DNA from: Cyanidioschyzon merolae
Lineage: Eukaryota
NCBI GenBank assembly: GCA_000091205.1
Contig: AP006497.2
DNA: 64,000 bases
Direction: 5' to 3' (one strand)
Shown here: one piece after another, positions 1,817 to 61,677 of the stretch
How the letters are laid out: every line of letters starts with the position of its first letter
How positions within the stretch are numbered: the stretch's first letter is position 1
Position numbers and translations under genes: made by a program
The notes under the pieces: model-generated
Told to the model about the DNA's origin: nothing
Database searches by the model: none
The model's input: the letters and a program-made list of their open reading frames with translations, nothing else

Positions 1817-4800
1817 TCAGAAATCGACACCTTCAATACGGTCTTCGATTTCGCGGTACAGATCCCGCAAGCGTTCGATATTCTCCTCGGAGGTTTCCCA
1901 GTAGCCACGGCCGTGTGCCTCCAGCATCGTTGTCACCATAGAGCGGAAGCTGTTGGGATTCGAGTCCATGAGCTTCTTCCGCATGGCCTCGTCGACAAAG
2001 AAGGTCTGGTTGGCGTTCTCATAGACCCAGTTGTCGACAGCGTCCGAGGTCACCGAGAACGCCATGGTGTTCCGCAAACGCTTGGAAAGTTCTCGCACAC
2101 CTTCGTAACCAGAGTTCACGAGTCCGTCGATCCACTTGGGATTCAGCAGTTTGGTCCGGCTATCGAGACGAATGGTCTCGTCGAGGCTGCGCACGGCAAC
2201 GTTCGCCGTCGTCGAGTCCGCGATATACGAGCGGGGCTTGCGCTTGTCACCCCGAAGGGCGGCAACCCACTTCTCGTTTGCGCCATCTGCATAATTCGAG
2301 ACGTCCGTCAAGGAGATCTCAGACGAATCCAGATTCTGCATCGTGACCTCGACGGTTTTGAGCGCCCGCTCGAAGCGCTGCCGCGCGGGAATCATGGCCC
2401 CCGGGCGATCACTATCGTAGGCGAAGGATTTGCGAGAGAGGTACTGTTCCTGGAGCTGCTGTTCATCGGTCCATCCTCCATTTTCAATGGCAATGCCAAC
2501 GTTCGCAGAATAACTGCCCGATGCATTCGAAAACACACGCGTTGCTGCCTCCCGTACACTGATGTTCTCCTCGGCTGCCTGCTCCAGGGCGTGCTTGCGC
2601 ACGTAGTTCATCTCGGGCGGTTCATCAGCCTCTGCTGCCATCTTGATCGCTTGGTCCATCAGCGCCATCTGGTTGATCAACAGATCGCGAAAGATGCCGC
2701 TAACCGTGACGACCACATCGATTCGTGGGCGTCCCAGCTCCGAGAGCGACACCAGCTCCACCCGGTTGACTCGTCCCGATGCGTCCGGCACCGGACGTGC
2801 CCCAATGAGCCACAGCACCTGGGCAATGCTCTGGCCAAACGACTTGATCGCCTCTGTGCCATAAAGTACCAGCGATACCGTCTCTGGCATTTGACCTTGG
2901 TTCGCGGCTGCTTCCCGCTCGAGCAGGCGCTCTACGACGACTTTGGCTTCGGCGAAGGCCGAACTCGTCGGAATCGACTGCGGATCCAGCGCGTGAATGT
3001 TCTTGCCGGTTGGGACGACGGCGGGGTTCCGGATGGGATCTCCCCCCGGACCCGGTTCGATGTAACGTCCTTGGAGTGCCTGCATCAGCGAACCGAGCTC
3101 GTTATCCTTAATGATCTGCTCTAGGCAGACCTCAAGGTACTCAAAGAGCGGCTTCAGGTCTCGTGCTGAGCACTGGGGAAAGCCGCTCTCCTCGAGCGCC
3201 ACCAGATACGTCGGTTTGATCGCTTCGGACAGGAACGATACCATCACGCGATCAATGCGTCCATCCTTGTTGACTGACTTGGAGACAACCCGCTCAACAG
3301 CGTTGCGGCACGCACGCTGAATGCGATCCAACAGCTCGACATCGTCTAGCGCTGTTGAGCGGTACAACTGCTCAATATCCCGATCAACAGACTCGGCTAC
3401 AATACGGGGCAAGGCCTTGAGTCCTTTCTCCGGCCGATCGACACCGGCGATATTCACGAGTGTTGCTACCGCCTCCGCCGCAGTCGGTGGTTTGCCTATC
3501 GTATGCAGCCCGATCGGCAACAAACGAGCTTCTATCTCCATGAGACGGGCGTAGATCGATCCAATAACCTGGTCCCGCTCTTGACGCGTGAGTTGATCGA
3601 ATCCGTCTACGGGCAAGTTGGGAATGTCTCGGTCGAGGTTGCACTGTCGAGCGGTTGCGACGATCGCTGCGCACAGTGCAGCAGCTCTGGACTCATTCGC
3701 ACGCAGTTCCTGGTACTCCCGGATAAGCGATTGACACTCTTTGAGTTCCTTGTAGAGGCCGGCGTTCTCTGCAGGCGGTGTAAGGTAGGAGATGATTCCG
3801 GCGTAGGAGCGTCGCTTCGCTATGGTTGCCTCCGAGGGATTATTCGCGGCATAATAGTAGAGGTTGGGTAGACCCCCGATGAGAAGGTCGGGGTAGCAAT
3901 CTCCACTCATGCCGACCTGTTTGCCCGGCATAAATTCCAGACTTCCATGCGTTCCAAAATGAATCACCGCATTCGCGTCGAAAATCTTCTGCAACCACGT
4001 ATAGCAGGCTGCGAATCCATGATGCGGCGATGCAGACTTGGAGAACAGCAGCCGCATAGGGTCGCCTTCGTACCCGAAACTTGGTTGCACGACCACGGCG
4101 ACATTTCCGAACTGTGCACCGTAGACCAGCAGATTTGTGCCGTCGGTGTTCAGGGTACCGGGAGGCGGACCCCAGTGCTCCTGCAATGAACGCTGATACT
4201 CACATAGACGTTCGTATTCGGATACAGGCATTCGATAGAGCACGTTGAGTTCAGGCGAGCTGATTTTGGCCTCGCGATCGTGCAGTACGCGCTCCATCAA
4301 CGCATCAACAGTCTCGGGAATATCACCGACGGTATAACCATCCAGCTTCATTGCCTGGAGGACCTTGTGGATCGAGCCGAACACGTCCAGATAGGCCGCG
4401 GTACCGACATTGCCCTTGTCTGGTGGAAACGAGAACACGACGACTGCAACCTTCTTCTCGCGGTTCTTCATGCGTCCAAGTTGGGCCCACTTCAGCGCTC
4501 GTGACGCCAGCAAATGAATGCGATCGTGCAGTGGAATACTCCGCCCTGTGAGTCCGTCTCGCCCCGCATAGATGAGCGGCTCGATCGCGCCGTCCAGCTC
4601 AGGCAGACTAACCTGTAATGCAGTCTGAATCGGATGCAGTCCGAGCTCGCTTCGCTTCCACTCATCAAATGTCTGGAATACAAGCGGCAGCGAGCAAATG
4701 TATGGGCGATTCAGGGCTTTGAGGGCTGCAACTGCGCGCGGATGGTCCTGTTTGGCGGGACCCCCAACCAGCGCAAATCCCGTAAGCGACACAACGACGT

Positions 4801-6091
4801 CGACCAGGGGCACTGCTGTATTCAGCGCATAAAAGAAACGGTTCACTGGCTCGCTGAAATCCAGGGCTCCCGAGAAAATCGGGATTACTTTCGCTCCACG
4901 GGCCTCCAGTTCCTGGATGAACGACACATAGTGACAATCATCTTTGGTGACCAGATGAGAGCGCTGCAGTACGATGCCGATGGTGGGCGCATCATTCGCA
5001 AGCCTTGCTCGCGGAGCGTGCTCCTTGTCGTACCAACGTATGTACTCGGTGACGTCCTCAAACATCTTGGGTGCCACAGGATGCCAGATTCCTGCATCCG
5101 GAAACAGGACCGGATCCTTCACTTCAAACTGGAAGCTCTGAACATCCTGAACGTACTTGGATGCAACCATTAAGATCATGTTTTCGAGGTTCTCTACAGT
5201 GCCCCCGAGCCAGTACTGAAAAGAGAGCATAAACGATCGCGCATCCTGAGCCTTGTCGCTCGGCAAGTACTTAAGCACCTTTGGCAGAGTGCGCAGCAAG
5301 CGAAGCATTTGGGACTCGAAGTCTGCACCCTGTTGTTCTCGCCGTTTCTTCATGATCTGCCCGATGAACGATGTCGTAGACTGTCCAGTCTGGTTCAGTT
5401 GGCCCATACTAAAAGCCCCGAGTTTGTTCAGTTTCATCACCGGAGGTAAGGACGGAAACACGACGCATGCATCGAGACGATCTCTTACAGGCGCGACGGC
5501 GGCGACGACCTTGTCGGCAAGCTCTTGGACAAAAATCAGAGATCCGATGAAAATGTTCGCATCCGCAATATCGCGCTTGAAGGCGTTGTAGTTGGCCTCG
5601 TTTCGAAGCTCCTCCAGGAGATAGCCACTCAGTTCCACCGCCATGTGCTCCTGTTTCGCGTTGATCTTTCGAACCGCAGCCGTCAGCGTCGACTGGTACT
5701 GCGACTCCAACACGACATATACAATTTTGACCAGTTTCCGTCCTTCTAGCACTGGAGGTACAATGTGCCTGTCCTCTGGCTTCGACGCCGTAAACAGGCC
5801 GCCTGGCGCTCCGGCCAGAATGCCCGTACCGTCGTCATTCACACCGTTTCCACCAGCGTTCCAGTTCACTGCAGCACCCGTACCTTTACGGCGCTCGTTC
5901 GCAGCAGTCATCACCGACCGAGTGCGCATCTGTTGCGAGCGGCGGCTGCTCGAAGGCAGCACCAGCGGCCCCCAGGCTGAGGTCTTGCCCCACTGGTGCA
6001 GCGGCTGCACGGAACCAGCTTTCACAGCAACACCGGTTCCTAAAAAGCGCTTCTGCAACGTGGTACTCGGCGCTACAAAGCTAATCTCCAT
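1817..6091 (-). CDS. CHLH: Magnesium-chelatase subunit H (ChlH; CobN/Mg-chelatase family), 1424 aa, single uninterrupted ORF
   Basis: A 1424-aa ORF with a proper ATG at complement 6089-6091. The long protein ends in ...[69 protein letters not shown]. Its length matches plant/algal ChlH (~1380 aa). The N-terminus [11 protein letters not shown]... looks like a plastid transit peptide with an FVAP motif. Confidence 0.92.
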
Positions 6092-6650
6092 ATTTAACGC
6101 ACGGTGGAATGTTTACCAGACCCTACGCTGGACGGAAGAAGCGTTCAGGTTGTGAAGCGTACACTACTTCTCTTCGTCAAACGTGTCTACTATGCGCAAG
6201 CCTCTGCACACGTGACAAGATGCTACGAGTTACTATACGCTCCAGGGAACGCTGAACTAGAAAATATCAAAACCAGACGCCAAGCCACAGCAATGCTATG
6301 CGCTCGTAGCAAAAGAGCGCGATAGGTTGTAAAGTGACCCGGAGATCAGTTCGACGAGGGCATGCGGCGGTGCAGTCGCACCTGCGCGTATCAGCGACGG
6401 CAGGAACGGCGGCGACGATCAGAAAACGACCGATGCAGAAGCGTTGAGGGCCGCATTGCGCAGCGCCCCGGATGGTGACCTGAAGCGTTCCTCCGGAGGT
6501 GCAGGGAAATCAGTGGAATAAAATGGATATTTATGGATAGAGTGCGTCGGGATCTGATTCTTATCTTCACGAAACGATGACATCGGGACCATGGATCCCC
6601 GAATTCGGAATCTATGATGGCTTTCGGGAAAGCGTCCACCATGAAGCACT

Positions 6651-8560
6651 TTCCTTCAAGTTCCATTACCCATACTTGCTTTCGGATAAACAGGTCTTTT
6701 CATAGGTTCCATCCAGCGGCGAATGGCTGCCTTGAGCACTCGCCGTAGCGCCTGCACCGCTCAAGCAGATGCTGCATAGAGAGTCAGAGGGGCTCTGCAA
6801 TACCACAGAGGGCGTCGGCTCGAGGCGTCATTCATTCAACCTCGACTCGACATTCATAATGAAACTGGGAGCCTGCAAGCGCTGCTGACAGACCTACTGT
6901 CTGCGGCAGCGCGAAGCAACAGACTAGGAGTCCACTGCGACCAGGGCGACGCCCAGACGCAGTAAAGCGGCGTCTAGACCCAGAATGAACTGCGTTGCGG
7001 AAGAGTTGAACAGGTCTCACGAAAGCACCTGCCACTGGAGGAAGCATAAAGCGCGACCCGGGCAGACTCGTCCAGGTCGCGGGACCTTCCGCCTAGGGGG
7101 TAAGCTTTTGACGGCATCGGAAACTTTCCCCTCGTTTCACGTCTATCGTAAAGCGGGGAAGGAATCGTTATCTCGTTGCAATGTAGTGGTACGTTGCTGT
7201 TATTTTGTCTATACGGCGCTCGACAGGCGCACCTGGAATATCTGGCGGTCACGAGACAAGACGGATATCTCGCCGTTGAAGGGAAACCCGATCGTGATCA
7301 TTTGCGTGTTGCTCTGACGTACATGTTGTGTTTGCGTTACAGTCGTGCCAAAGTACAGTATTTCATCTCGATGGTGTTTCGACCATCAAGCAACGATATT
7401 CCGGTAGTTTTCGCGCAGTTTGTATCAGAAGCGTTCAAAAAGCGTTCTTTTTCAAAAAAACAAAAAAGGAAAGTTTTGGAGAGGCAAGTCGTCGATCCCA
7501 GAGGCCAAGTGTCACCGGATGCCGGAAAAAGCGGAGAGCACTGCCGAGCCCAGAAGCACTGGAGAGGACCGCGACGCGGAAAGTGCATGAGAACGACTTG
7601 GTCGTTGGTGCAGACGCCGGACACACGAAGATCCGTAGCCATCGCGGTTCGCGAGTGTGCGGAAGATGGCATGGACGGTAACCTACGTCCGAAAGACATG
7701 CGGCTTTTGAGCTTCTCGAGAGCGAGATGCTATCGAGAATCTGGAATCATGAATGCAAGGACAAAAATCGAGACGTGGAACGCAGGAATGAAGGATCACG
7801 TGGAAGCTTCGAGCGATGTGACGAGCCGAGGAGCAGACTTTCAAACTTTTCTGAAATGCATGGAAGTTCGCGTCGCTGACTGGGAGGCGCTGTGGAAAGC
7901 GTATCCAAAGCCCCGGTGGGCTCGTCTGCGTATGCGTCTATACTGTGGGAAGCAGCGCGCATTCGCCAATTTTTTCAATCCACTGAACGCCTTGAAGGAG
8001 GACGAGGGTCAGAGGCTCCTAGTAGCGTACGGAGCAGGGCGCTGGATGACCCAAAACAGGATATACGCCAGCTCCAACAACAAGAACGTACAAGGAGCGC
8101 GCACGGCGTTTTGTCACCATACCGATAGATGCGTTCCGAACATCGTACACACACCATGAGCTGGGCTGCACGCTTCAGAGGGTCGAGATAGAAAAGTGCC
8201 AGCGGGGCCCTGAGCATTTAAAAAAGTACGGAGCGCCGACGGAAGAGCAAATGGAAAGGAGGGCAAAAGTGCGAGAGCTACTCGCATTAGTATATACAAC
8301 CAGTGATGGCAAGAAACGTATGGAATTCGTGAACCGAGACTTGAACGCCGCTATCAATATTCGGAGAAGTGCGGTGATGGGGAAAAGACCTCCAGAGTTG
8401 ACAGGAGAGAATTTTGTGGGGCAGCGTCTCATGGTCGAATTGTACAGAATGAAAATGAAGCCAGTTGTAGGTGGCCAGTCGAGCGAGACAGTGAGGCTTC
8501 GGCGTTTCAGTTGGAGACGTTTTGTGTAGGGCGCGTTTGCCGCCACTGCTGTATACCGCT
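6651..8560 (+). mobile_element. TnpB/Fanzor-like RuvC-nuclease element, copy 1 (high-identity block; true ends uncertain)
   Basis: Direct repeat of 16372-18280 at about 99% identity overall (see the patchwork finding for how identity varies along the element). It encodes a multi-frame ORF set with a RuvC-I-like motif LVVGADAGHTKI and a RuvC-III motif FVNRDLNAAINIRR. I see no terminal inverted repeats. Weaker (~60%) similarity continues at least 60 bp beyond both edges. Confidence 0.55.
7328..8529 (+). CDS. TnpB/Fanzor-like RNA-guided-nuclease homologue, read across three frames
   Basis: Frame 2 (7328-7681) gives ...KVHENDLVVGADAGHTKI (G-x-D-x-G, RuvC-I-like). Frame 0 (to 8159) gives ...NALKEDEGQRLLVAYGAGRW...ASSNNKNV...FCHHTDRC (RuvC-II/bridge-like region with Cys residues). 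Frame 1 (8050-8529) gives ...ELGCTLQRVEIEKCQRG...KKRMEFVNRDLNAAINIRR (RuvC-III D-x-N-A-A-x-N-I). The frame switches are identical in copy 2, so they are more likely introns than random decay. The span is the sum of ORFs 7328..7681, 7176..8159 and 8251..8529. Confidence 0.5.
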
Positions 8561-9175
8561 GCGCCACCGTGTTCCCATGGAAGAGAAATTTCGAAAACTT
8601 GAAGACTGCGTGACTGGGAGCTTCTGCACACGAATTCGAGAGTATATCATTTGCTCTCCGATGCCTTGTTCGACGGCGTCGCGAATCTTCATGTTTCCCG
8701 TGGCGTATCGAACTGCAGCGGTAAAGATCCCAGGTATCCATTCCGAAAACCCGACCGAGAATCCTAAAACTACCTTTGAGTTCTCAAGTCCGTCTCTTTA
8801 TATTTCGAATGTCGACTTTGGAAATCACGGAATAAAACATTCAGAAAAAAATGCAAAGCCACGAACACAGTGCGAGCATCTCCCAATCCACTTGTAATCC
8901 AGGATTGGCGTGGTATCATCTGCGCGCTGTTGATGCAGCACTAGCACCAATACGCTGGTCTCTCAGGAACTCAAGTCGGTTGGGTCCTAAAAACCACCAG
9001 CGTGGGAGGAATTTTCATCTGTCCGTGCTAACCGCTTGGCTGTTTCTTTGAACCAGTGGCGGGAAGCAAGGCTCGGTTCACTAGGACGAGTCTAGCGGAG
9101 CGTTACGGTGCTGATCGAAAGGCCGTGCCGCTCTACCGCCGAGCACTCCGAGTTCATGTGGCTGGCTCTTTCGAC

Positions 9176-13831: not shown

Positions 13832-15931
13832 TTATATACTATATCGTCCAGATTCTTCCGTGCTGCCCGATGCCTTGTGTCTGCCGTTCGCATCCGCCTC
13901 GTGTGATAACGACAGCACCGCTACCGTCTCTATATGCGGTGTGTGCGGGAACTGGTCAACCAGCGCCACTTTCTCCAGGCGATACCAAGGTGCATCTCGC
14001 AAGAGTAGGTCTAGGTCACGCGTCTGGCTCGCTGGATTACAGGACACGTATACAAGGCGGCGCGGTCGTAGTGCCGGCGGTGCACCGGCGATCGCTTTGA
14101 GCTGCCGCGGGTGCACGCCGGCACGCGGCGGGTCCATTACCAGCAGGTCCACTGGATGTTGCCGCGCCAGCGGCAAGTGTCGAAAGATGACTTGCCACAA
14201 GTTCTCTTTCTCCAGGTCCGTCACTTGAAAAACCGTGTTTGTGCGTGCATTGAGTCTGGCGTTCGTGCGGGCGTCATCGACGGCACTCGCCACGAGCTCC
14301 AGTCCCAGAACTTGCTCGGCGAAAGGTGCCAAGCAAAGCGCAATGGTGCCAGTGCCGCAGAAGAGGTCCACAACGAGCGCACCGGTGTCTTGTCTGGCCT
14401 GCGGGCTCGACACGGCAAGCTCGGCAGAAGACTCTGCAGCGGGTGACACCTGACCGACGCTCGGCTGTTCCAGGAGGCCGCTGTTCTCCAGAACAACCGC
14501 CATGAGCCGTTCAGCTTGTGCTGGATTCGTCTGAAAGAAGGAATTCGCGGAAATCTGAAAGTTGATGCCCGTCTCGGACCAGGAGCTGGTTTGGATTCGA
14601 GAGCGCACGTGGCGAAGCGGACGCAGGCACTGTTCGATGGTATCCTGGGTACCTGCCAGGCGTCGTTGGCTCTCTCCGACCGCAACTCCGGAGCGATTGC
14701 TGGTAATGTTTTGCAGCACGCAAACAAGGCCACGATTGGTCTCACCGAAAGCTTTCCACAGCGCAGCCGCAACGTCCTCCAGTGCAGCCTGCTGGTGAGC
14801 GTCTGCCGGTGGGCTCGTGACTAGGTTGACCATCACCTGCGTCTGATTGTGTCGGTCTTGAGCTGTCCGAATGACCAGGTTGCGCAGGAAACCAACGTGT
14901 TCCACGAGGTCGTAGGGCGGCAAGAGCGTCTCGGCCAGCGGTCGACAATGACGCTCGACGAAGCGAAGGATTTCGTTCGCGACGTCGATCTGAAGTGCGC
15001 AGTCCTCAATGCAGAGCACCTTATCGTAGCGTCGCGGTACGTGCAGTCCCAGCGCAAACCCAGTGCGCATGTCCTCACCGCTTTCCGGAGCTGTGTCCGT
15101 CCCGGGTCGTTTCCTACCAGAACTAACCGTGTTTTCGTCTCGCGTGGACGTGTCCCGGCCCTGACGCAGCGTGACCTTTCCGCTATCGTCTGCTGTATTC
15201 GGTTTCGGACGCCATACACGAGTTCCAAAGGTGAAATCCATCTTGTTCCGATACGCGTAGAGTCCTGTAGGCACCGTTGCTCCTACGGCCGGTAAGAACT
15301 CTACCGATGCCTCAGATGCAAGTCCATCTGTCTCCAGACGGCGGAGCAAGGCCCGATACATGTCACGAACTTGCTCCTCCTTCTCGGACAACTGTTTTGT
15401 GTAGATCAAGTTCTGAAACTTGCAGCCTCCACAACCTTCGAGGAAGTGTCGACACAGTGGCGCAGTTGCGAACATCGAGGGTGGATCTAGGCGTTCCACC
15501 ACTATCGCCTCCGCATGGTTACGTTTCCGACGAATGATGCGAGCACGCACTCGTTCTCCTGGAATGGCGTTGTGGACGAGCACCACGAATGACTCGTTCT
15601 CACTCAGTTGCAAACGACTGACGCCCATGCCAGTACCGTGCGCCAGTGACTCGACAGCGAGCTCCACCAGGAGGCCGCGCGAGGGCGACTTTTGTGACGA
15701 GGGCGCTCCAGGTCCATCGGTCGCTACCATGGTAGCGCTAGAGAGTCGCTCGCCCGCTGAAAAGTGTCGAGTTTGACGACTCCTGTGACACGGACGCTGC
15801 CAGACGCGTGCCCTGTAGATAATCGGTGAAAGCACTCGCGCAAAAGCAGGTTTTAGCGACACAGGTCTTTCGAAAAGTGAAACATACGTTCGTTCGACCA
15901 GGACAGCACCAGTGCGAATCTCTGTCCGCAT
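13832..15931 (-). CDS. TrmA/RumA-family RNA (uracil-5)-methyltransferase (TRM2-like), with an N-terminal extension
   Basis: The ATG start at complement 15929-15931 is verified. There is a TRAM-like N-region. A Cys cluster ...CRHFLEGCGGCKFQNL resembles the RumA Fe-S motif. A SAM-binding motif VVDLFCGTGTIALCLAP is present. The C-terminus has VYVSCNPASQTRDL, typical of class I m5U methyltransferases. Confidence 0.75.
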   Translation of the reverse strand: MRTEIRTGAVLVERTYVSLFERPVSLKPAFARVLSPIIYRARVWQRPCHRSRQTRHFSAGERLSSATMVATDGPGAPSSQKSPSRGLLVELAVESLAHGTGMGVSRLQLSENESFVVLVHNAIPGERVRARIIRRKRNHAEAIVVERLDPPSMFATAPLCRHFLEGCGGCKFQNLIYTKQLSEKEEQVRDMYRALLRRLETDGLASEASVEFLPAVGATVPTGLYAYRNKMDFTFGTRVWRPKPNTADDSGKVTLRQGRDTSTRDENTVSSGRKRPGTDTAPESGEDMRTGFALGLHVPRRYDKVLCIEDCALQIDVANEILRFVERHCRPLAETLLPPYDLVEHVGFLRNLVIRTAQDRHNQTQVMVNLVTSPPADAHQQAALEDVAAALWKAFGETNRGLVCVLQNITSNRSGVAVGESQRRLAGTQDTIEQCLRPLRHVRSRIQTSSWSETGINFQISANSFFQTNPAQAERLMAVVLENSGLLEQPSVGQVSPAAESSAELAVSSPQARQDTGALVVDLFCGTGTIALCLAPFAEQVLGLELVASAVDDARTNARLNARTNTVFQVTDLEKENLWQVIFRHLPLARQHPVDLLVMDPPRAGVHPRQLKAIAGAPPALRPRRLVYVSCNPASQTRDLDLLLRDAPWYRLEKVALVDQFPHTPHIETVAVLSLSHEADANGRHKASGSTEESGRYSI

Positions 15932-16371
15932 CCACGAGCAGTGCGAAAGGGCAAGTACTCGGAGCCTGGAAACACAGCGTCAGTGCCAGTTCGAGACTGA
16001 GCGACCTGCGTCCGTCTTGGTAGAGGTTTTCAACTTGGCAGGCTCGCGAAGCCGACTTTTCGGTTAAGGGACGCACTGTTGCTGCTCTTTAATCCTAACG
16101 AGAGCTTGCCTCTTCAGCAGAGACTACCGCGTTCCAATAGCCCCGCAGTAAAGTTCGTGAAGAGAATAGAGTCTGGTTTTTCACGCGGCTCTGCGGGGGT
16201 AGCGTCTACCGCTGGTGTTTTAAGAAAAAGCGGTACGATGTGTGGTTTTGGAGCAAAAGAGCATCGCGCAGCGTAGATATGTCCTCGATGACAGAACGTC
16301 TCCATTGATCAGGGATCCCAGATTGCGGGATGGATTTCGGCAAGCGGGAAAGTGTTTATGAAACTGTACCC

Positions 16372-18280
16372 TACCTTCAAGTTCCATTACCCATACTTGC
16401 TTTCGGATATACAGGTCTTTTCATAGGTTCCATCCAGCGGCGAATGGCTGCCTTGAGCACTCGCCGTAGCGCCTGCACCGCTCAAGCAGATGCTGCATAG
16501 AGAGTCAGAGGGGCTCTGCAATACCACAGAGGGCGTCGGCTCGAGGCGTCATTCATTCAACCTCGACTCGAGATTCGTAATGAAACTGGGAGCCTGCAAG
16601 CGCTGCTGGCAGACCTACTGTCTGCGGCAGCGCGAAGCAACAGACTAGGAGTCCACTGCGACCAGGGCGACGCCCAGACGCAGTAAAGCGGCGTCTAGAC
16701 CCAGAATGAACTGCGTTGCGGAAGAGTTGAACAGGTCTCACGAAAGCACCTGCCACTGGAGGAAGCATAAAGCGCGACCCGGGCAGACTCGTCCAGGTCG
16801 CGGGACCTTCCGCCTAGGGGGTAAGCTTTTGACGGCATCGGAAACTTTCCCCTCGTTTCACGTCTATCGTAAAGCGGGGAAGGAATCGTTATCTCGTTGC
16901 TATGTAGTGGTACGTTGCTGTTATTTTGTCTATACGGCGCTCGACAGGCGCACCTGGAATATCTGGCGGTCACGAGACAAGACGGATATCTCGCCGTTGA
17001 AGGGAAACCCGATCGTGATCATTTGCGTGTTGCTCTGACGTACAAGTTGTGTTTGCGTTACAGTCGTGCCAAAGTACAGTGTTTCATCTCGATGGTGTTT
17101 CGACCATCAAGCAACGATATTCCGGTAGTTTTCGCGCAGTTTGTATCAGAAGCGTTCAAAAAGCGTTCTTTTTCAAAAAAACAAAAAAGGAAAGTTTTGG
17201 AGAGGCAAGTCGACGATCCCAGAGGCCAAGTGTCACCGGATGCCGGAAAAAGCGGAGAGCACTGCCGAGCCCAGAAGCACTGGAGAGGAGTGCGACGCGG
17301 AAAGTGCATGAGAACGACTTGGTCGTTGGTGCAGACGCCGGAAACACGAAGATCAGGAACCATCGCCGTGCGCGAGTGTGCGGAAGATGGCGTGGACGGT
17401 AACCTACGTCCGAAAGACATGCGGCTTTTGAGCTTCTCGAGAGCGAGATGCTATCGAGAATCTGGAATCATGAATGCAAGGACAAAAATCGAGACGTGGA
17501 ACGCAGGAATGAAGGATCACGTGGAAGCTTCGAGCGATGTGACGAGCCGAGGAGCAGACTTTCAAACTTTTCTGAAATGCATGGAAGTTCGCGTCGCTGA
17601 CTGGGAGGCGCTGTGGAAAGCGTATCCAAAGCCCCGGTGGGCTCGTCTGCGTATGCGTCTATACTGTGGGAAGCAGCGCGCATTCGCCAATTTTTTCAAT
17701 CCACTGAACGCCTTGAAGGAGGACGAGGGTCAGAGGCTCCTAGTAGCGTACGGAGCAGGGCGCTGGATGACCCAAAACAGGATATACGCCAGCTCCAACA
17801 ACAAGAACGTACAAGGAGCGCGCACGGCGTTTTGTCACCATACCGATAGATGCGTTCCGAACATCGTACACACACCATGAGCTGGGCTGCACGCTTCAGA
17901 GGGTCGAGATAGAAAAGTGCCAGCGGGGCCCTGAGCATTTAAAAAAGTACGGAGCGCCGACGGAAGAGCAAATGGAAAGGAGGGCAAAAGTGCGAGAGCT
18001 ACTCGCATTAGTATATACAACCAGTGATGGCAAGAAACGTATGGAATTCGTGAACCGAGACTTGAACGCCGCTATCAATATTCGGAGAAGTGCGGTGATG
18101 GGGAAAAGACCTCCAGAGTTGACAGGAGAGAATTTTGTGGGGCAGCGTCTCATGGTCGAATTGTACAGAATGAAAATGAAGCCAGTTGTAGGTGGCCAGT
18201 CGAGCGAGACAGTGAGGCTTCGGCGTTTCAGTTGGAGACGTTTTGTGTAGGGCGCGTTTGCCGCCACTGCTGTGCACCGC
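16372..18280 (+). mobile_element. TnpB/Fanzor-like RuvC-nuclease element, copy 2
   Basis: Direct repeat of copy 1. The ORFs 16897..17880 and 17972..18250 match 7176..8159 and 8251..8529. The last ~850 bp are identical; differences cluster around 17280-17400 (G-x-D-x-G is retained: LVVGADAGNTKI). The right edge lies ~50 bp upstream of the DUF1992 ORF. Confidence 0.55.
17049..18250 (+). CDS. TnpB/Fanzor-like nuclease homologue, copy 2 (multi-frame)
   Basis: Same frame structure as copy 1, with RuvC-I-like VVGADAGNTKI and RuvC-III FVNRDLNAAINIRR. Confidence 0.5.
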
Positions 18281-18325
18281 TGACGACTGCTTTCGACTTT
18301 TGAAAGGCGTTTGCTAGCGGTGTAA

Positions 18326-19222
18326 GCGTTGGCGCACCTCCGGAGGACTGACACTGGGCCCGGGCGGTCATCTGTGCAACAGTCGCATGTTCTCGGTATT
18401 CTTCGCTCATATCTGCTTCGCCCGCTCACCACTCGTGGACGCAGTCACTGGCACGCAGTACCGAGCCGAGCACTCGTGGCCGTAGCAGAGCGCCCTGCTG
18501 GCCCTGGAGGCGTGCAAAAGCGCACCGAACGCGTCGTACCGAGTGAGGCCGCTCGACAGGAGCGCACTGCCCGTCTGCGTCGCGCCGTAGACCTTCCACA
18601 AAATCGCATTTATCCCTTTCTAGAGCATAAGGTTGCTGGCGAGGCCAAACGCAAGGACCTCCTGGCCGTTCTGGAGCAGGACTCGAGTCGCTTCGAAGAT
18701 GAACGAGCCATTCGTGACTGGGTTGAGTCACAGATTCAGGAAGCGATTCGGCAAGGGGCGTTCGAGCGGCTCCCGCGAGGGCCACTGCAGCTGCCGCAAC
18801 CACCACTCGGTGTCGACCTTGTCACGTATACCATGCATGGTCTTTTACAGCGGCACGGACTGCGACCTGTCTGGATAGAATGTATGCATGAAGTAGACGC
18901 CGAAGTGAAACGTATTCGTCTGGCTCTGGAACGAGCGTATCGAGCTCGAGTTGCTACCGCCGAGGACACGTCACCTGCGAGCACAGCACAACGAGCTGAG
19001 CGCTGGGAGGCAGCAGCGCGGGAGCTCCAGGAACAGATGCATCAAGTGAACCGACGAAATGATGCTTTTAATCTCATGAAACCCGAGCGCCTGGACACTG
19101 TTTTCCGACTGCGCATGCGTTGGGAGCACGAATTCATGCGCGTCAAGCAACGAGTGGAAAGCGAGTACTCAGCTGAACCGCGTAGCAGTTTAGCTCCGGA
19201 GGCAACGGACCCGAAAGCTTGA
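18326..19222 (+). CDS. DUF1992 (DNAJC28 C-terminal domain-like) protein; 5' end unresolved, no in-frame ATG before the domain
   Basis: ...ERAIRDWVESQIQEAIRQGAFERLPRGPLQLPQPPLGVDLVTYTMHGLLQRHGLRPVWIECMHEVDAEVKRIRLALERAY matches the DUF1992 pattern (IEEAIRxGxFDNLPGKGKPL...). The track start at 18329 is TTG and there is an in-frame stop at 18323-18325. The first in-frame ATG falls only inside the domain. Confidence 0.5.
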   Translation, partial: ALAHLRRTDTGPGRSSVQQSHVLGILRSYLLRPLTTRGRSHWHAVPSRALVAVAERPAGPGGVQKRTERVVPSEAARQERTARLRRAVDLPQNRIYPFLEHKVAGEAKRKDLLAVLEQDSSRFEDERAIRDWVESQIQEAIRQGAFERLPRGPLQLPQPPLGVDLVTYTMHGLLQRHGLRPVWIECMHEVDAEVKRIRLALERAYRARVATAEDTSPASTAQRAERWEAAARELQEQMHQVNRRNDAFNLMKPERLDTVFRLRMRWEHEFMRVKQRVESEYSAEPRSSLAPEATDPKA

Positions 19223-28670: not shown

Positions 28671-28762
28671 ACTGAAAAAATAACACAAAAAAGTAAGACA
28701 AGAAAAATGCGCATCCTCGGAGAACGCTGGCTTAAGGAAACGTTTTGTCCATGAGAAAAAAA
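28671..28762 (+). mobile_element. Short poly(A)-tailed retroposon copy (SINE-like or 5'-truncated retrocopy), 92 bp, flanked by a 12-bp TSD
   Basis: A perfect 12-bp direct repeat tccatgcggcat at 28659-28670 and 28763-28774 brackets the insert exactly. The insert ends in gagaaaaaaa and is about 85% identical to 44621-44710. It contains the micro-ORF MRILGERWLKETFCP* (28707-28754). Confidence 0.6.
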
Positions 28763-32299: not shown

Positions 32300-33300
32300 G
32301 TTCGCGGACAGCATTCTTCGGATGATATCGCAACGACAGCGTTCCTGGAACGTCTCGATCGGTATGAAGCACAGGGACATGGGCTTGTTTTTCCAGTTGA
32401 TGAGACTTGCTTGGAACGAACCGAACGGTACATATTTGAATATTTGCGGAGAAGAGTGCCCTTTATATGTTCGATCTAGCTCGAAGAGAATGAGGACGTC
32501 ATCTTCTGTTCTATCCGCAGTGGATACGATTCGCAGCCTCGATTTCGCGCACAGAGAACGCTCATACAACAGGATTCGCTTCGTCATATCATTGAAGAAG
32601 ATTCCGCGGACGTTTTGCAACGTTCTTCTATCGGACAACATGGCATTTAACCATTCCTGTTGCGATCGAGTTTTTGCCGATTCTATCTGGGTTACTGCTG
32701 CTTTTCATTCATCCGCACACTCCGTGCTCCAAGTCTATCCAGAGGATGTTTTCTATCACGAAAAGGCATGATCGCTTTACGGAGCGAGTGTCAGCAGCTT
32801 TCAGCACATGGTGACACTGGGGCAGATATCGTCTACCTTCCGCAAATCCGTCCTCCTCGGGGAAGGTACGCACCAAATGGCATAAACAACTGTGTTCATT
32901 TTAAAAAATTACGGGATGAGCTAGGATGCACATTTCAGAAGGTCGGGATGAAGAAAAGCCCGTGGAGCGCTTCGGCGCTAGAAAAGCACAGAGAGCTGAC
33001 AGCGCACCAAACGGGACGGAGGGTACGACGTCGAGGAATCCTTGCATGGATGCGTTCAACCAGTTGCAATCAATGCATGGTATTCGGGAACCGACACTTG
33101 AACGCCGCTATCAATGCCAGCTGATGTGTGCGGTGCAGAAGACGCCACCCGAGGCGCTGACGCGATCCAACTTGTATGCCACAGCCCCTCAGTCTCGAAG
33201 TGTACCTGGATACATCGAAACCGATTGCAGTCTCTCGAATAATAAAAGCAAGGAAGCATCGGCGAGAGTATCTATATGTAAATAAGCGTATGAATAGGTG
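32300..33300 (+). pseudogene. Degenerate third TnpB/Fanzor-like copy (frameshifted, catalytic-site substitution)
   Basis: ORF 32660..33124 ends ...ELGCTFQKVGMKK...AWMRSTSCNQCMVFGNRHLNAAINAS*. This aligns with copy 1 ...ELGCTLQRVEIEK...TSDGKKRMEFVNRDLNAAINIRR. The Asp of D-x-N-A-A is replaced (NRH versus NRD). The downstream peptide AVQKTPPEALTRSNL (copy 1 AVMGKRPPELTGENF) continues in a different frame. The region is AT-richer than its surroundings. Confidence 0.5.
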
Positions 33301-44585: not shown

Positions 44586-44710
44586 TTGGGAGTAGGGGGT
44601 TGATGCATACCTCACCGCGCACTGAAAAACACACACAAAAAAATAAGAAAAGAAAAATGCGCATAATCGGAGAACGCTGGCCTAAGTACACATTTTGTCC
44701 ATGAAAAAAA
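44586..44710 (+). mobile_element. Short poly(A)-tailed retroposon copy (longer, 125 bp) flanked by a 12-bp TSD
   Basis: A perfect 12-bp direct repeat tcgcacaggaac at 44574-44585 and 44711-44722 brackets an insert ending in catgaaaaaaa. Its 3' 90 bp match 28671-28762. It contains the micro-ORF MRIIGERWPKYTFCP*. Confidence 0.6.
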
Positions 44711-51382: not shown

Positions 51383-53147
51383 AGGCACTGGCTGGGGCCG
51401 AGCACCGCCACCCGCGCCAGCACCGCACTGGTTTGGTTTCATTACGAGCGCACGAAGATTGTCGAGTGTTTCTTTCCAGTGCAGGCGGTCTCGGGACGTA
51501 AGCGCCAACCATATCAGAGTCGTGAGCAGTGCCTTGCTGGCAACTTTGGCTGGAAGACGAGCGGCAGAAATGCCGGCTTTTGCGGGCAAAGCAAGCAGTT
51601 CTGGTGTATTCAAAGACGGTGCCTGGAGCAGGTACATGCTCTAGTGATGGTCTAAACTCGTTTCAGATGAACATGGAACACTGAACGTTTCGCTCTGTTC
51701 CAGCCTGGAGCATTTGTTTCGGAATGTGTTGGTATGAATAGCATGGCATTCGAGCTGGAATCAGACTGGCTTGATTCTTCACATGTAGGTATAGGATTTT
51801 GCGGGGTCGTTCATTCGGGGTGACCCCTTCGATGCTTTGCCTATGGTACGCGTTACGTCACCAGAATCATGACAATTGGTGACACTTCCAAACAGAAATT
51901 CGTGAAATAAGCACTATGATCATTCATTGCATACGTATAGGTTCACGATTGAACCCGTTTCTTGATACGGACCATGATCAAAATATGCATGCTTCAAGCT
52001 TTCGACCTCTACGTTTCAAAGCTACTCGCAGGTGCAGCAACGCAGGCCGCCGAACTGCCGAGAAGCGGCAACTCGGCGTCGTTCCAGGACAGTTTTTTCA
52101 AAACCTCATGCCGAACGTTCCCTGACCTTGTCGCGTCGCATCAAGAAATTCGAAGGAAGGAACAGTCACGCCTGGTTCGTGGCCAGCGACGGAACCGCAT
52201 TCGACAACAGCAGCGTGATAGCACTCGCGTGTCACGCTCCCCAGAGCTTCCGTCGGTACAGATTGCATGGAAACGAGCCTTGGAAACGGACTTGAGTCAT
52301 CGCAGTGATCGCTTTCTCTGGGGAATCCGTCATCGTTTTGCAGGAAGCGTGCGTAGATGGATCGAAGTCTCTCTACTTGTTCTCGTAAGGCGATGCTGCT
52401 TCCGGTGCTTATTTCATCATGGACCACAGCATCGTACTCAACACATGCTTCGTTGAATAGAGCAGCATGCGCTGGTATCTGCTGCGGACATGGTACTCGA
52501 CGAATGAGCATCGCTCCAGAGAAGCAACCCCTGAACGTTGGGTATGGCGTCAGGCGCAGAGACGCAGCAGAGCGCATGGACGGGAGTCGTCGGTGCCCAA
52601 CGACGTCATGTACGGAGCGGTGAAGTAGGTGTTCGCAGGCCACACAGAGTCGTTCTTGGAGAAGCATCTCTGGCGGACACGTATCTCTAAGCACCTGAAC
52701 AAATCCAAGCGTCAACGCGACGACGGGCGCACCCAAGCTCTGAACCCAAAACATGAAAGCGCCAGTCGAAACGTAGATCACAACGAACGTCGACGCATTC
52801 AATACGTCGCCACCAGCCAGAAAAGTAAAAGCATACGAACTTGAATGTTGGTATGAACATCTTTCGCTACTGCAGAGAACGGAGCTGGATGAAAAAAGAG
52901 AGGCATCTGGAATGAACGCTCGCGACAAGAGAAGGGTACCAGAAGCAGTCGCAGACCCCAGCGCCCAAATCTGGTGTTGATGACAATGGAAGGAGACACA
53001 AAGCTTCGTATGGACGCCCGAGTCAGCATAGTGGGATCATTGTACTCTATGCTGACGCAGGTAGAGTTGGAATGACATGCTTTGACCTGCGTCCGTGTAC
53101 ACGTGGCTGCTTAGGTGCATCCGTACGTCGGTGCGACATGGTGTAAC

Positions 53148-59357: not shown

Positions 59358-59667
59358 GAACGCCTCACATCAGCACGAATAGAGCCTAGGTACGTCATGA
59401 AACGAACGCCTAAAGCCCTGAACGCCTCACATCAGCACGAATAGAGCCTAGGTACGTCATGAAACGAACGCCTAAAGCCCTGAACGCCTCACATCAGCAC
59501 GAATAGAGCCTAGGTACGTCATGAAACGAACGCCTAAAGCCCTGAACGCCTCACATCAGCACGAATAGAGCCTAGGTACGTCATGAAACGAACGCCTAAA
59601 GCCCTGAACGCCTCACATCAGCACGAATAGAGCCTAGGTACGTCATGAAACGAACGCCTAAAGCCCT
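59358..59667. repeat. Minisatellite: 62-bp unit x5 perfect tandem copies
   Basis: The unit gaacgcctcacatcagcacgaatagagcctaggtacgtcatgaaacgaacgcctaaagccct starts at 59358, 59420, 59482, 59544 and 59606. The array overlaps the stop codon of the coiled-coil gene on the minus strand. Confidence 0.95.
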
Positions 59668-60650
59668 GTGGCTTTCGACGTGCCCTCTCGTTGGGTATTT
59701 CGGCCGCGATTCCATTCCCCGTCAAGGTCGTAGAGACGCAACTCCAGCGCTCTGTTTCGTCTTTGCAATGTTTCCACCTCGTCAGAGAGGTGAAGTGACT
59801 TGAGCTTGAGGGCTTCGTAGGCCTCTCGCGTCGCATCCAAGGCTGTCTCAAGCTCTAGAACTCGCTTTCGGAGCGACTGCACTTGGTACTCAAGTCGCTC
59901 TCGTTCCGACTCTGCATTGGCGGCTGCGACTTTGGTCTCGACCAGCAAGCGCTCATAATCTTCTAAAGACGAAGGTTCCACACGTAAAAGTTCAGCGATA
60001 GACAGGCGCTCGACTTGTTCGGTATCCCAGTTCCCGGTTGATGACGTGGCTGGCGTCGGGCGTTGGCGTGACTCGTCGACACGGTCGTGCTGCAGCGTGT
60101 CCCCAGAAGTCCCGATACTGAGGTGTTCAGAACAAGTCACCAGCGACTTTGCCGGAGAGCACGCTTGTTCCGCGACGCGCCTCCGACTTGATGCTTCACG
60201 CGTTTCACCGGGGACAGCTTCCAGCGGCTCTTTTGAGGTGCGGCTCGATGAGCAAGTGTCAGCTGATGCGCAGCCTCTGTCCGTGCCGCCACGCGCTGCC
60301 AAGGCGGCTGTCGTGACTTGCACTCCAGGCAGCGATTCGTCTGTACATTCGTTGCTGAGAGCGTTTGAATTGAGGCCCGTCGCGTGTTCACCTCGCGTTG
60401 CGTCTCGACCGGTGGGGCAGCGCGCACTGGACGCGTCGCTTCCAGCGCTCGTCGACATGGGTAGGCAAGCGACTTTTGCCTTTTCTAAAACCAAAACCGG
60501 TACCGACCAACGGTGCACCCTGGTGCTGGCTAGTGTGTCTCTCGTCGGCTTGAGCAGCACGTTCACACACCGTCTCCACTGTGAGGCACAACGAAGCGCT
60601 TTTCCACGCGTCAACTCTCTGAAACGTCCAGGTAACGCGCACCGATGCAT
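59658..60650 (-). CDS. Hypothetical protein with a C-terminal coiled-coil
   Basis: The ATG at complement 60648-60650 is verified. The C-terminal ~110 aa (...LEDYERLLVETKVAAANAESERERLEYQVQSLRKRVLELETALDATREAYEALKLKSLHLSDEVETLQRRNRALELRLYDL) has heptad-like periodicity. The N-terminal half is Ser/Thr-rich. Confidence 0.45.
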   Translation of the reverse strand: MHRCALPGRFRELTRGKALRCASQWRRCVNVLLKPTRDTLASTRVHRWSVPVLVLEKAKVACLPMSTSAGSDASSARCPTGRDATRGEHATGLNSNALSNECTDESLPGVQVTTAALAARGGTDRGCASADTCSSSRTSKEPLEAVPGETREASSRRRVAEQACSPAKSLVTCSEHLSIGTSGDTLQHDRVDESRQRPTPATSSTGNWDTEQVERLSIAELLRVEPSSLEDYERLLVETKVAAANAESERERLEYQVQSLRKRVLELETALDATREAYEALKLKSLHLSDEVETLQRRNRALELRLYDLDGEWNRGRNTQREGTSKATGL

Positions 60651-61293: not shown

Positions 61294-61677
61294 GCAAGCG
61301 TACGCCGTTCTACTCGATAGATGATAAGCGGATTCCGATGTCTTCCATGATGAAACAGCAAGCGTACGCCGTTCTACTCGATAGATGAGAAACGGATTCC
61401 GATGTCTTCCATGATGAAACAGCAAGCGCGCGCCGTTCTACTCGATCGATGATAAGCGGATTCCGATGTCTTCCATGATGAAACAGCAAGCGTACGCCGT
61501 TCTACTCGATCGATGATAAGCGGATTCCGATGTCTTCCATGATGAAACAGCAAGCGCGCGCCGTTCTACTCGATCGATGATAAGCGGATTCCGATGTCTT
61601 CCATGATGAAACAGCAAGCGCGCGCCGTTCTACTCGATCGATGATAAGCGGATTCCGATGTCTTCCATGATGAAACA
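61294..61677. repeat. Minisatellite: 64-bp unit x6 tandem copies (minor variants)
   Basis: The unit gcaagcg[ta/cg]cgccgttctactcgat[a/c]gatga[t/g]aa[g/a]cggattccgatgtcttccatgatgaaaca starts at 61294, 61358, 61422, 61486, 61550 and 61614. The spurious minus-strand ORFs MLFHHGRHRNP... are read through it. Confidence 0.95.

Follow-up and report, generated by a model that had tools for sequence, protein, structure and literature searches.

Two dead copies of the Fanzor1 element CMe-1A in Cyanidioschyzon merolae, with interiors probably homogenised by gene conversion

Characterised Fanzor1 proteins are RNA-guided DNA endonucleases whose guide RNA is derived from the 3' end of the open reading frame (ORF) together with the right end of the element, extends about 20 nt into the flanking DNA, and is adjoined by a conserved stem-loop (Yoon et al., bioRxiv 10.1101/2023.08.09.552727). 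The Fanzor signature described in the same study comprises a DPG RuvC-I motif, a C-terminally shifted RuvC-II Glu and RDxxxxxN, with the shifted Glu located six residues before a zinc finger. One Fanzor1 family of Cyanidioschyzon merolae, CMe-1A, was presented by Bao & Jurka in 2013 (Mobile DNA 4:12, PMC3627910) as about 150 copies, each ~80% identical to a 3,169-bp consensus, having no terminal inverted repeats (TIRs), target site duplications (TSDs) listed as 'n.a.', and no encoded transposase; its sole ORF specifies the Fanzor1 protein CMe-1 (734 amino acids (aa), 1 exon; supplementary table of the same paper). The window analysed here, a stretch of 64,000 nucleotides from C. merolae contig AP006497.2 (assembly GCA_000091205.1), contains a nearly perfect 1.9-kb repeat, the two members of which (copies A and B) are very probably dead CMe-1A Fanzor1 copies that were inserted independently and whose interiors were homogenised by gene conversion. 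Coordinates are collected in Table 1.

The CMe-1A consensus was taken from the supplement of PMC3627910 and mapped onto the window by blastn and global alignment. For copy A, blastn aligned positions 6569-7569 with consensus 6-1000 (79.2% identity) and 7571-8573 with consensus 2154-3155 (84.9%), and for copy B positions 16286-17289 with consensus 1-999 (79.6%) and 17291-18309 with consensus 2153-3169 (84.9%), both copies being collinear with the consensus at 79-85%, including both termini. The ends of copy A were placed from multi-copy alignments and are each uncertain by about 5 nt. The published CMe-1 protein carries the same motifs as the window copies. A third, weak self-match (blastn, 70% over 205 nt at 32916-33115) marks a strongly decayed element, relic C, that is limited to the stretch from the last part of RuvC-II to RuvC-III and reads NRHLNAAINAS, the catalytic Asp having been replaced by His. 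Copies A and B are copies of the already published CMe-1A, and relic C is one more scrap of it. They have the organism, the element, the protein motifs, and the lack of TIRs and of a transposase in common with the published family, and differ from it in being a frameshifted 2.0-kb derivative without consensus ~1001-2152. An earlier reading made from the letters and ORF translations of the window (the sequence-only reading) had called the block the most unusual thing in the window; since CMe-1A, with its ~150 copies, was already catalogued for this genome in 2013 (PMC3627910), the block is ordinary repeat content. Interlocus gene conversion and the 3'-terminal hairpin are absent from that publication, as are exact termini for CMe-1A, and no later work on Cyanidiales Fanzors was found in our literature search.

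When the window was compared with itself by blastn, A and B matched over 1,909 nt at 99.0% identity (19 mismatches, 0 gaps, E = 0), at coordinates differing by at most 2 nt from the duplicated block that the sequence-only reading had placed at 6651-8560 and 16372-18280; a dedicated repeat finder alone returned just a 300-nt reference piece of this repeat. The mismatches were unevenly distributed, with 10 falling within 7569-7671 and none in 7672-8552. Both elements extend past the 99% block (A to ~6564-8590 and B to ~16286-18311), so that the boundaries of near-identity fall within the element and not in unique DNA. Outside these boundaries the resemblance collapses: A and B agree with each other at only 62% over the terminal 84 nt on the 5' side, where either copy shares 77% with the consensus, and at only 52% over the last ~27 nt on the 3' side; the 400-nt flanks, at 57%, are at the random background (58%). 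The junction of the internal deletion shared by A and B (consensus 1000/2153) was confined to these two copies among 84 sources searched, and none of the 80 metagenome loci contained it; deletion derivatives are under-represented in those loci, which were chosen by a near full-length protein match. Copy A was present in the same surroundings, 99% identical, on three metagenome contigs from wild strains; of the 17 comparable sites at which A and B differ, 11 showed the copy-B base there. The contrast between tract and termini, the unrelated flanks, the unique junction and the allele mosaic in wild strains together indicate that A and B were inserted independently and long ago and that ectopic gene conversion has made their interiors alike; conversion between them appears to be still under way in natural populations. 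The pattern is the textbook one for interlocus conversion between dispersed repeats (a sharp tract of near-identity inside older, diverged paralogues, with unrelated flanks and patchy allele sharing), and no notable difference from it was seen. Efficient homologous recombination has been documented in C. merolae in work on gene targeting (PMC3764038).

The near-identity had been attributed beforehand to either recent mobility or gene conversion, and of these two the former was not borne out. Recent trans-mobilisation of a non-autonomous CMe-1A deletion derivative, yielding two 99%-identical insertions, would explain the close similarity of A and B together with the deletion and frameshifts that they have in common, and further deletion subfamilies do exist, such as one without consensus ~492-1081 (5' untranslated region (UTR) and ORF start) at several loci (L014, L015, L033, L053, L072, L073 and L076). 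A fresh insertion would, however, bring identical termini, and the divergence of the A and B termini, which are nevertheless collinear with the consensus, therefore speaks against recent transposition, as do the junction seen in no other sampled copy and the mosaic allele sharing with wild strains, leaving this explanation improbable. The short distance between the copies (9.7 kb) and their shared orientation could instead point to a segmental duplication or an assembly artefact as the source of the second copy. Here the similarity would not be expected to stop inside the element with unrelated sequence on either side, and copy A was recovered in its context from three independent assemblies of natural samples, which makes this origin very improbable. 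Segmental duplication and fresh transposition were accordingly both rejected on the comparison of termini and flanks, in favour of conversion between old insertions.

The peptides quoted in the sequence-only reading were located in copy A (GADAGHTKI at 7607-7633, LLVAYGAGRWMTQ at 8016-8054, IDAFRTSYTHHELGC at 8125-8169 and FVNRDLNAAINIRR at 8326-8367), spread across three reading frames. This layout is real, and the frame changes are identical in A and B; they had been interpreted as spliceosomal introns. Two potentially active copies of an intact Fanzor gene with introns, only recently transposed, would agree with the identity of the frame changes and with the absence of in-frame stops from the frame-corrected C-terminal 319 codons, and Fanzor genes of other eukaryotes contain introns. 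In C. merolae, however, introns are reportedly limited to about 26 genes. No intervening sequence absent from homologous proteins was detected at either frame change by consensus alignment or tblastn: the tblastn high-scoring segment pairs (HSPs) abut or overlap (8042/8038 in A; 17354/17359 and 17763/17759 in B), and the full-length relatives (more than 100 of them intact) run continuously through both sites with nothing skipped. Because the HSPs abut or overlap, and because each change amounts to a single inserted base relative to the consensus and to the intact relatives, both are frameshift mutations and not introns. The intact-gene interpretation is further contradicted by the single exon of the published ORF (PMC3627910) and by the lesions described below, and is extremely improbable. 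At the second insertion the in-frame continuation runs from VAYGAGRWMTQ directly into KGYTPAPTTRTYKE...FVTIPIDAFRTSYTHHELGC, and '...ASSN' and 'FCHHTDRC', which lie outside the protein, result from reading on out of frame beyond the insertion at ~8057.

Both copies are non-functional relics, and the suggestion that they were intact genes fails on several counts, all of the lesions being common to A and B. The start codon has been lost (ATG to TTG), one nucleotide is missing from an A-run after consensus 955 early in the ORF, and an in-frame deletion of 1,152 nt has removed 384 codons, corresponding to CMe-1 residues ~33-416, i.e. the N-terminal half; downstream follow the change of DPG to DAG in RuvC-I, the two +1-nt insertions, and the substitution of the shifted RuvC-II catalytic Glu (whose role was described in bioRxiv 10.1101/2023.08.09.552727 by Yoon et al.) by Ala. 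Neither copy has a start codon, an unbroken ORF or the full N-terminal (REC/WED) half, and the D-E-D triad is not intact, both Asp residues being retained and the Glu lost. As a consequence of these shared lesions, A and B cannot make a nuclease with its guide RNA. The frame-corrected C-terminal 319 codons remain 78% identical to CMe-1, which, together with their freedom from stop codons, suggests that the source lineage of A and B may have been under selection until fairly recently.

The relationship of these remnants to Fanzor1 and TnpB was assessed through their relatives. A search of a large protein collection yielded 152 metagenome proteins at 55-80% identity, and an exhaustive profile search (E <= 1e-3) showed the family to be large, with 1,885 clusters at 50% identity. 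A broadened profile of 36 relatives at 25-41% identity, run against Protein Data Bank (PDB) sequences, matched the solved Fanzor1 structures 9cf0 (E = 2.7e-21), 8gkh (2.2e-14) and 9cer (1.2e-10), in alignments that pass through the DPG, DEFRTS and NRD motifs, and residues D314, E486 and D555 (P0023 numbering) were invariant across the 36 relatives. The pattern DPG...E...RDxxxxxN was matched by the CMe-1 consensus and by 32 of the 36 relatives. The zinc-finger part of the Fanzor pattern ([CH]xxC...C) was matched by none of the 36 nor by the CMe-1 consensus, CxxC occurred in none, and in place of the zinc ribbon CMe-1 has only HHELGC-x9-C. On these similarities the CMe-1 clade, window copies included, is assigned to the Fanzor1/TnpB-family RuvC nuclease lineage. 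The sequence-only reading had thus recognised a TnpB/Fanzor remnant, and had picked out RuvC-I and RuvC-III correctly (D314 and D555); its RuvC-II and zinc-finger stretches were in part the out-of-frame artefacts noted above, the true catalytic Glu of the family being E486, the C-terminally shifted one in VDEFRTS, which aligns with the E of the solved Fanzor1s. Of the follow-up that it had proposed, the Pfam search on the joined protein yielded no more than a PF07282 match below threshold, and the Fanzor1 relationship emerged with the broadened profile. A UbiH match of the window peptides and the crude joined protein (Pfam, NCBIfam) was discarded as spurious.

Compared with the solved Fanzor1s of Spizellomyces punctatus (8GKH), Parasitella parasitica (9CF0) and Guillardia theta (9CER), the CMe-1 clade shows homology over WED/REC-RuvC and shares the DPG RuvC-I, the shifted Glu in (D/d)E(F/Y)(R/K)TS and the RuvC-III NRD. 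In the solved proteins a CxxC follows right after 'TS' (CPKC, CPRC or CPSC), whereas all 36 relatives in the CMe-1 clade lack it; and the solved Fanzor1s are nucleases, while the clade is known here from sequences and the window copies are pseudogenes. Prokaryotic TnpB (IS200/IS605, IS607) probably belongs to the same RuvC D-E-D superfamily as CMe-1, with weak Pfam similarity at the RuvC-III/TNB end, and its elements resemble CMe-1A in style, having subterminal hairpins and no TIRs; CMe-1 differs in having DPG rather than D-hydrophobic-G, a shifted Glu, no adjacent TnpA, and a eukaryotic host. Tandem repeats of ~20 aa, variable in number, occur just N-terminal of RuvC-I in P0001, P0002, P0021 and many other relatives (DNDLVV.A.KHEEKKEA.PATQEV; consensus ~2050-2150), and this variation is the reason that most blastn HSPs stop at consensus ~2117-2123.

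The termini of the family were examined by aligning the 3' ends of 47 non-redundant copies, 43 of which were folded singly, and the 5' ends of 18 copies. The 5' ends begin sharply with a T-run followed by CGATGACAAAACGTTTACATTGACCATGGATCCCAGATTGCGG, and on the 3' side the copies abruptly cease to align a few bases downstream of where the published consensus finishes, after a hairpin and then CGTT. No TIRs or inverted repeats were found, and when an empty site for TSDs was sought in the wild strains all three contigs carried copy A, so that no TSD could be defined. The terminal hairpin has a stem of 8-13 bp in most of the 43 folded copies, with stem sequences that are unrelated to one another (e.g. 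L069 and L040), and its folding z-score averaged -1.27, being below -2 in 28% of these copies. The 3'-terminal hairpin of CMe-1A is conserved in shape and not in sequence. By analogy with the characterised Fanzor1s, an intact CMe-1A would express its nuclease together with a guide RNA, which would be transcribed from the ORF's 3' end plus the element's right end and would reach ~20 nt into flanking DNA, and the hairpin would then sit at the place expected of the guide-flanking stem-loop. CMe-1A encodes no transposase of its own.

Several results weigh against parts of this interpretation. A profile of 14 close relatives gave only a chance match to angiogenin in the PDB. The window peptides alone scored 16.9 bits against PF07282 (Cas12f1-like TNB), for which the cut-off is 26.3, and the match covers just the 11-residue NAAINI motif; the full-length relatives likewise gave weak or no Pfam matches (at most 6 of 36, best E = 5e-4, none to PF01385), no match to PF07282 or PF01385 reached the gathering threshold, and the PF26935 annotation precomputed for the N-terminal half of P0014, P0016, P0019 and others was not reproduced with the local Pfam. 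AlphaFold2 modelling of relative P0108 from a 37-sequence alignment was too poor for a fold search (pLDDT 45.1, pTM 0.33). RNAalifold returned no consensus pairs for the 3' 240 nt of the 43 folded copies, which leaves a long, well-conserved scaffold unsupported by the alignment, and for that reason the guide-RNA proposal draws on the analogy and on the hairpins of individual copies. Finally, given the under-sampling of deletion derivatives at the junction, a small non-autonomous deletion subfamily is improbable but may have escaped notice.

For the window itself the consequence is slight: A and B are pseudogenes belonging to a repeat family known since 2013, and to report them as a newly found RNA-guided nuclease gene, or as a sign of introns in this almost intron-free genome, would be a mistake. 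Modestly new are the conversion itself, which would make a clear example of interlocus gene conversion still acting on dispersed C. merolae transposon relics, the CMe-1A termini, which could be placed more precisely than in 2013, the 3'-terminal hairpin, and the lack of zinc-ribbon cysteines throughout the clade. Intact members of the CMe-1 clade number hundreds of copies in acidic hot-spring metagenomes, and the clade, which keeps the D-E-D triad without zinc-ribbon cysteines and has a shape-conserved hairpin, may offer a lead toward a compact Fanzor from a thermoacidophile. A bolder combination of these results is unlikely: the intact CMe-1 clade would be a functional Fanzor1 lineage that gave up its zinc ribbon, the 3'-terminal stem-loop would be its guide-flanking RNA element, and breaks made by its nuclease could help drive interlocus conversion between copies in a recombination-proficient alga, A and B still being dead relics.

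Table 1. Positions in the window of the CMe-1A copies, their lesions and related features
Feature	Position	Strand	Remarks
Copy A, internally deleted CMe-1A	6564..8590	+	Consensus 1/6-1000 + 2154-3169; consensus blastn, multi-copy alignments
Copy B, CMe-1A with the same deletion	16286..18311	+	Consensus 1-999 + 2153-3169 + conserved terminal TT
Tract attributed to gene conversion, copy A	6653..8561	+	99.0% identical to 16374-18282
Tract attributed to gene conversion, copy B	16374..18282	+	99.0% identical to 6653-8561
Former start codon, ATG to TTG	7476..7478	+	Consensus position 906; copy B 17197-17199
Junction of 1,152-nt (384-codon) deletion	7569..7571	+	Copy B 17289-17291
RuvC-I GADAG	7607..7621	+	Asp codon 7613-7615 kept; DPG to DAG; copy B 17328-17342
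First frameshift, +1 nt vs consensus ~2216	7633..7640 (~7633)	+	Copy B ~17355-17357 (~17356)
Second frameshift, +1 nt after consensus 2638	8055..8061 (~8057)	+	Copy B ~17778
Shifted RuvC-II catalytic Glu to Ala	8131..8133	+	IDAFRTS for VDEFRTS; copy B 17852-17854
RuvC-III FVNRDLNAAINIRR	8326..8367	+	Asp codon 8338-8340; copy B 18047-18088
Stop codon of former Fanzor1 ORF	8527..8529	+	Copy B 18248-18250
Decayed 3' hairpin remnant, copy A	8567..8580	+	CCGTG-TTCC-CATGG, 5 bp
3'-terminal hairpin, copy B, + GCGTT	18290..18311	+	CTTTCGA-CTT-TTGAAAG, 7 bp, 18290-18306; homology among copies ends there
Relic C, strongly decayed CMe-1A	32916..33256	+	32916-33153 = consensus 2737-2978, 72%

The surroundings of the copies confirm that the locus is algal nuclear DNA, as had been proposed: the ChlH ORF next to copy A (1817-6091, minus strand, 1,424 aa) is identical to XP_005537601.1/BAM81565.1 of C. 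merolae 10D, and the ChlH protein is also present on several metagenome contigs of the Joint Genome Institute (JGI). The window has a G+C content of ~55% and long uninterrupted ORFs, consistent with a nearly intron-free red alga, and no tRNA genes were detected across its 64 kb. The C. merolae 10D genome is a finished one. Copy A lies in the divergent intergenic region 6092-9055, between ChlH (minus) and a leucine-rich repeat (LRR) ORF (plus), and copy B in the likewise divergent region 15932-18328, between the ORFs at 13832-15931 (minus) and 18329-19222 (plus); the placement of both in divergent intergenic regions may reflect tolerance of insertions in, or a preference for, shared promoter regions.

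Further repeats were observed elsewhere in the window. A perfect tandem array of a 62-nt unit (five units, 100% identity) at 59358-59668 abuts the end of the minus-strand ORF 59658-60650, and ~1.6 kb from it a second array, of a 64-nt unit (six units, 96%), occupies 61294-61677; the two units are unrelated in sequence. Weak inverted similarity (65.5% over 580 nt) links 51855-52423 with 62227-61664, and may represent a diverged paralogue or another old repeat. A 90-nt direct repeat with 86.7% identity is present at 28671-28760 and 44621-44710, 16 kb apart.

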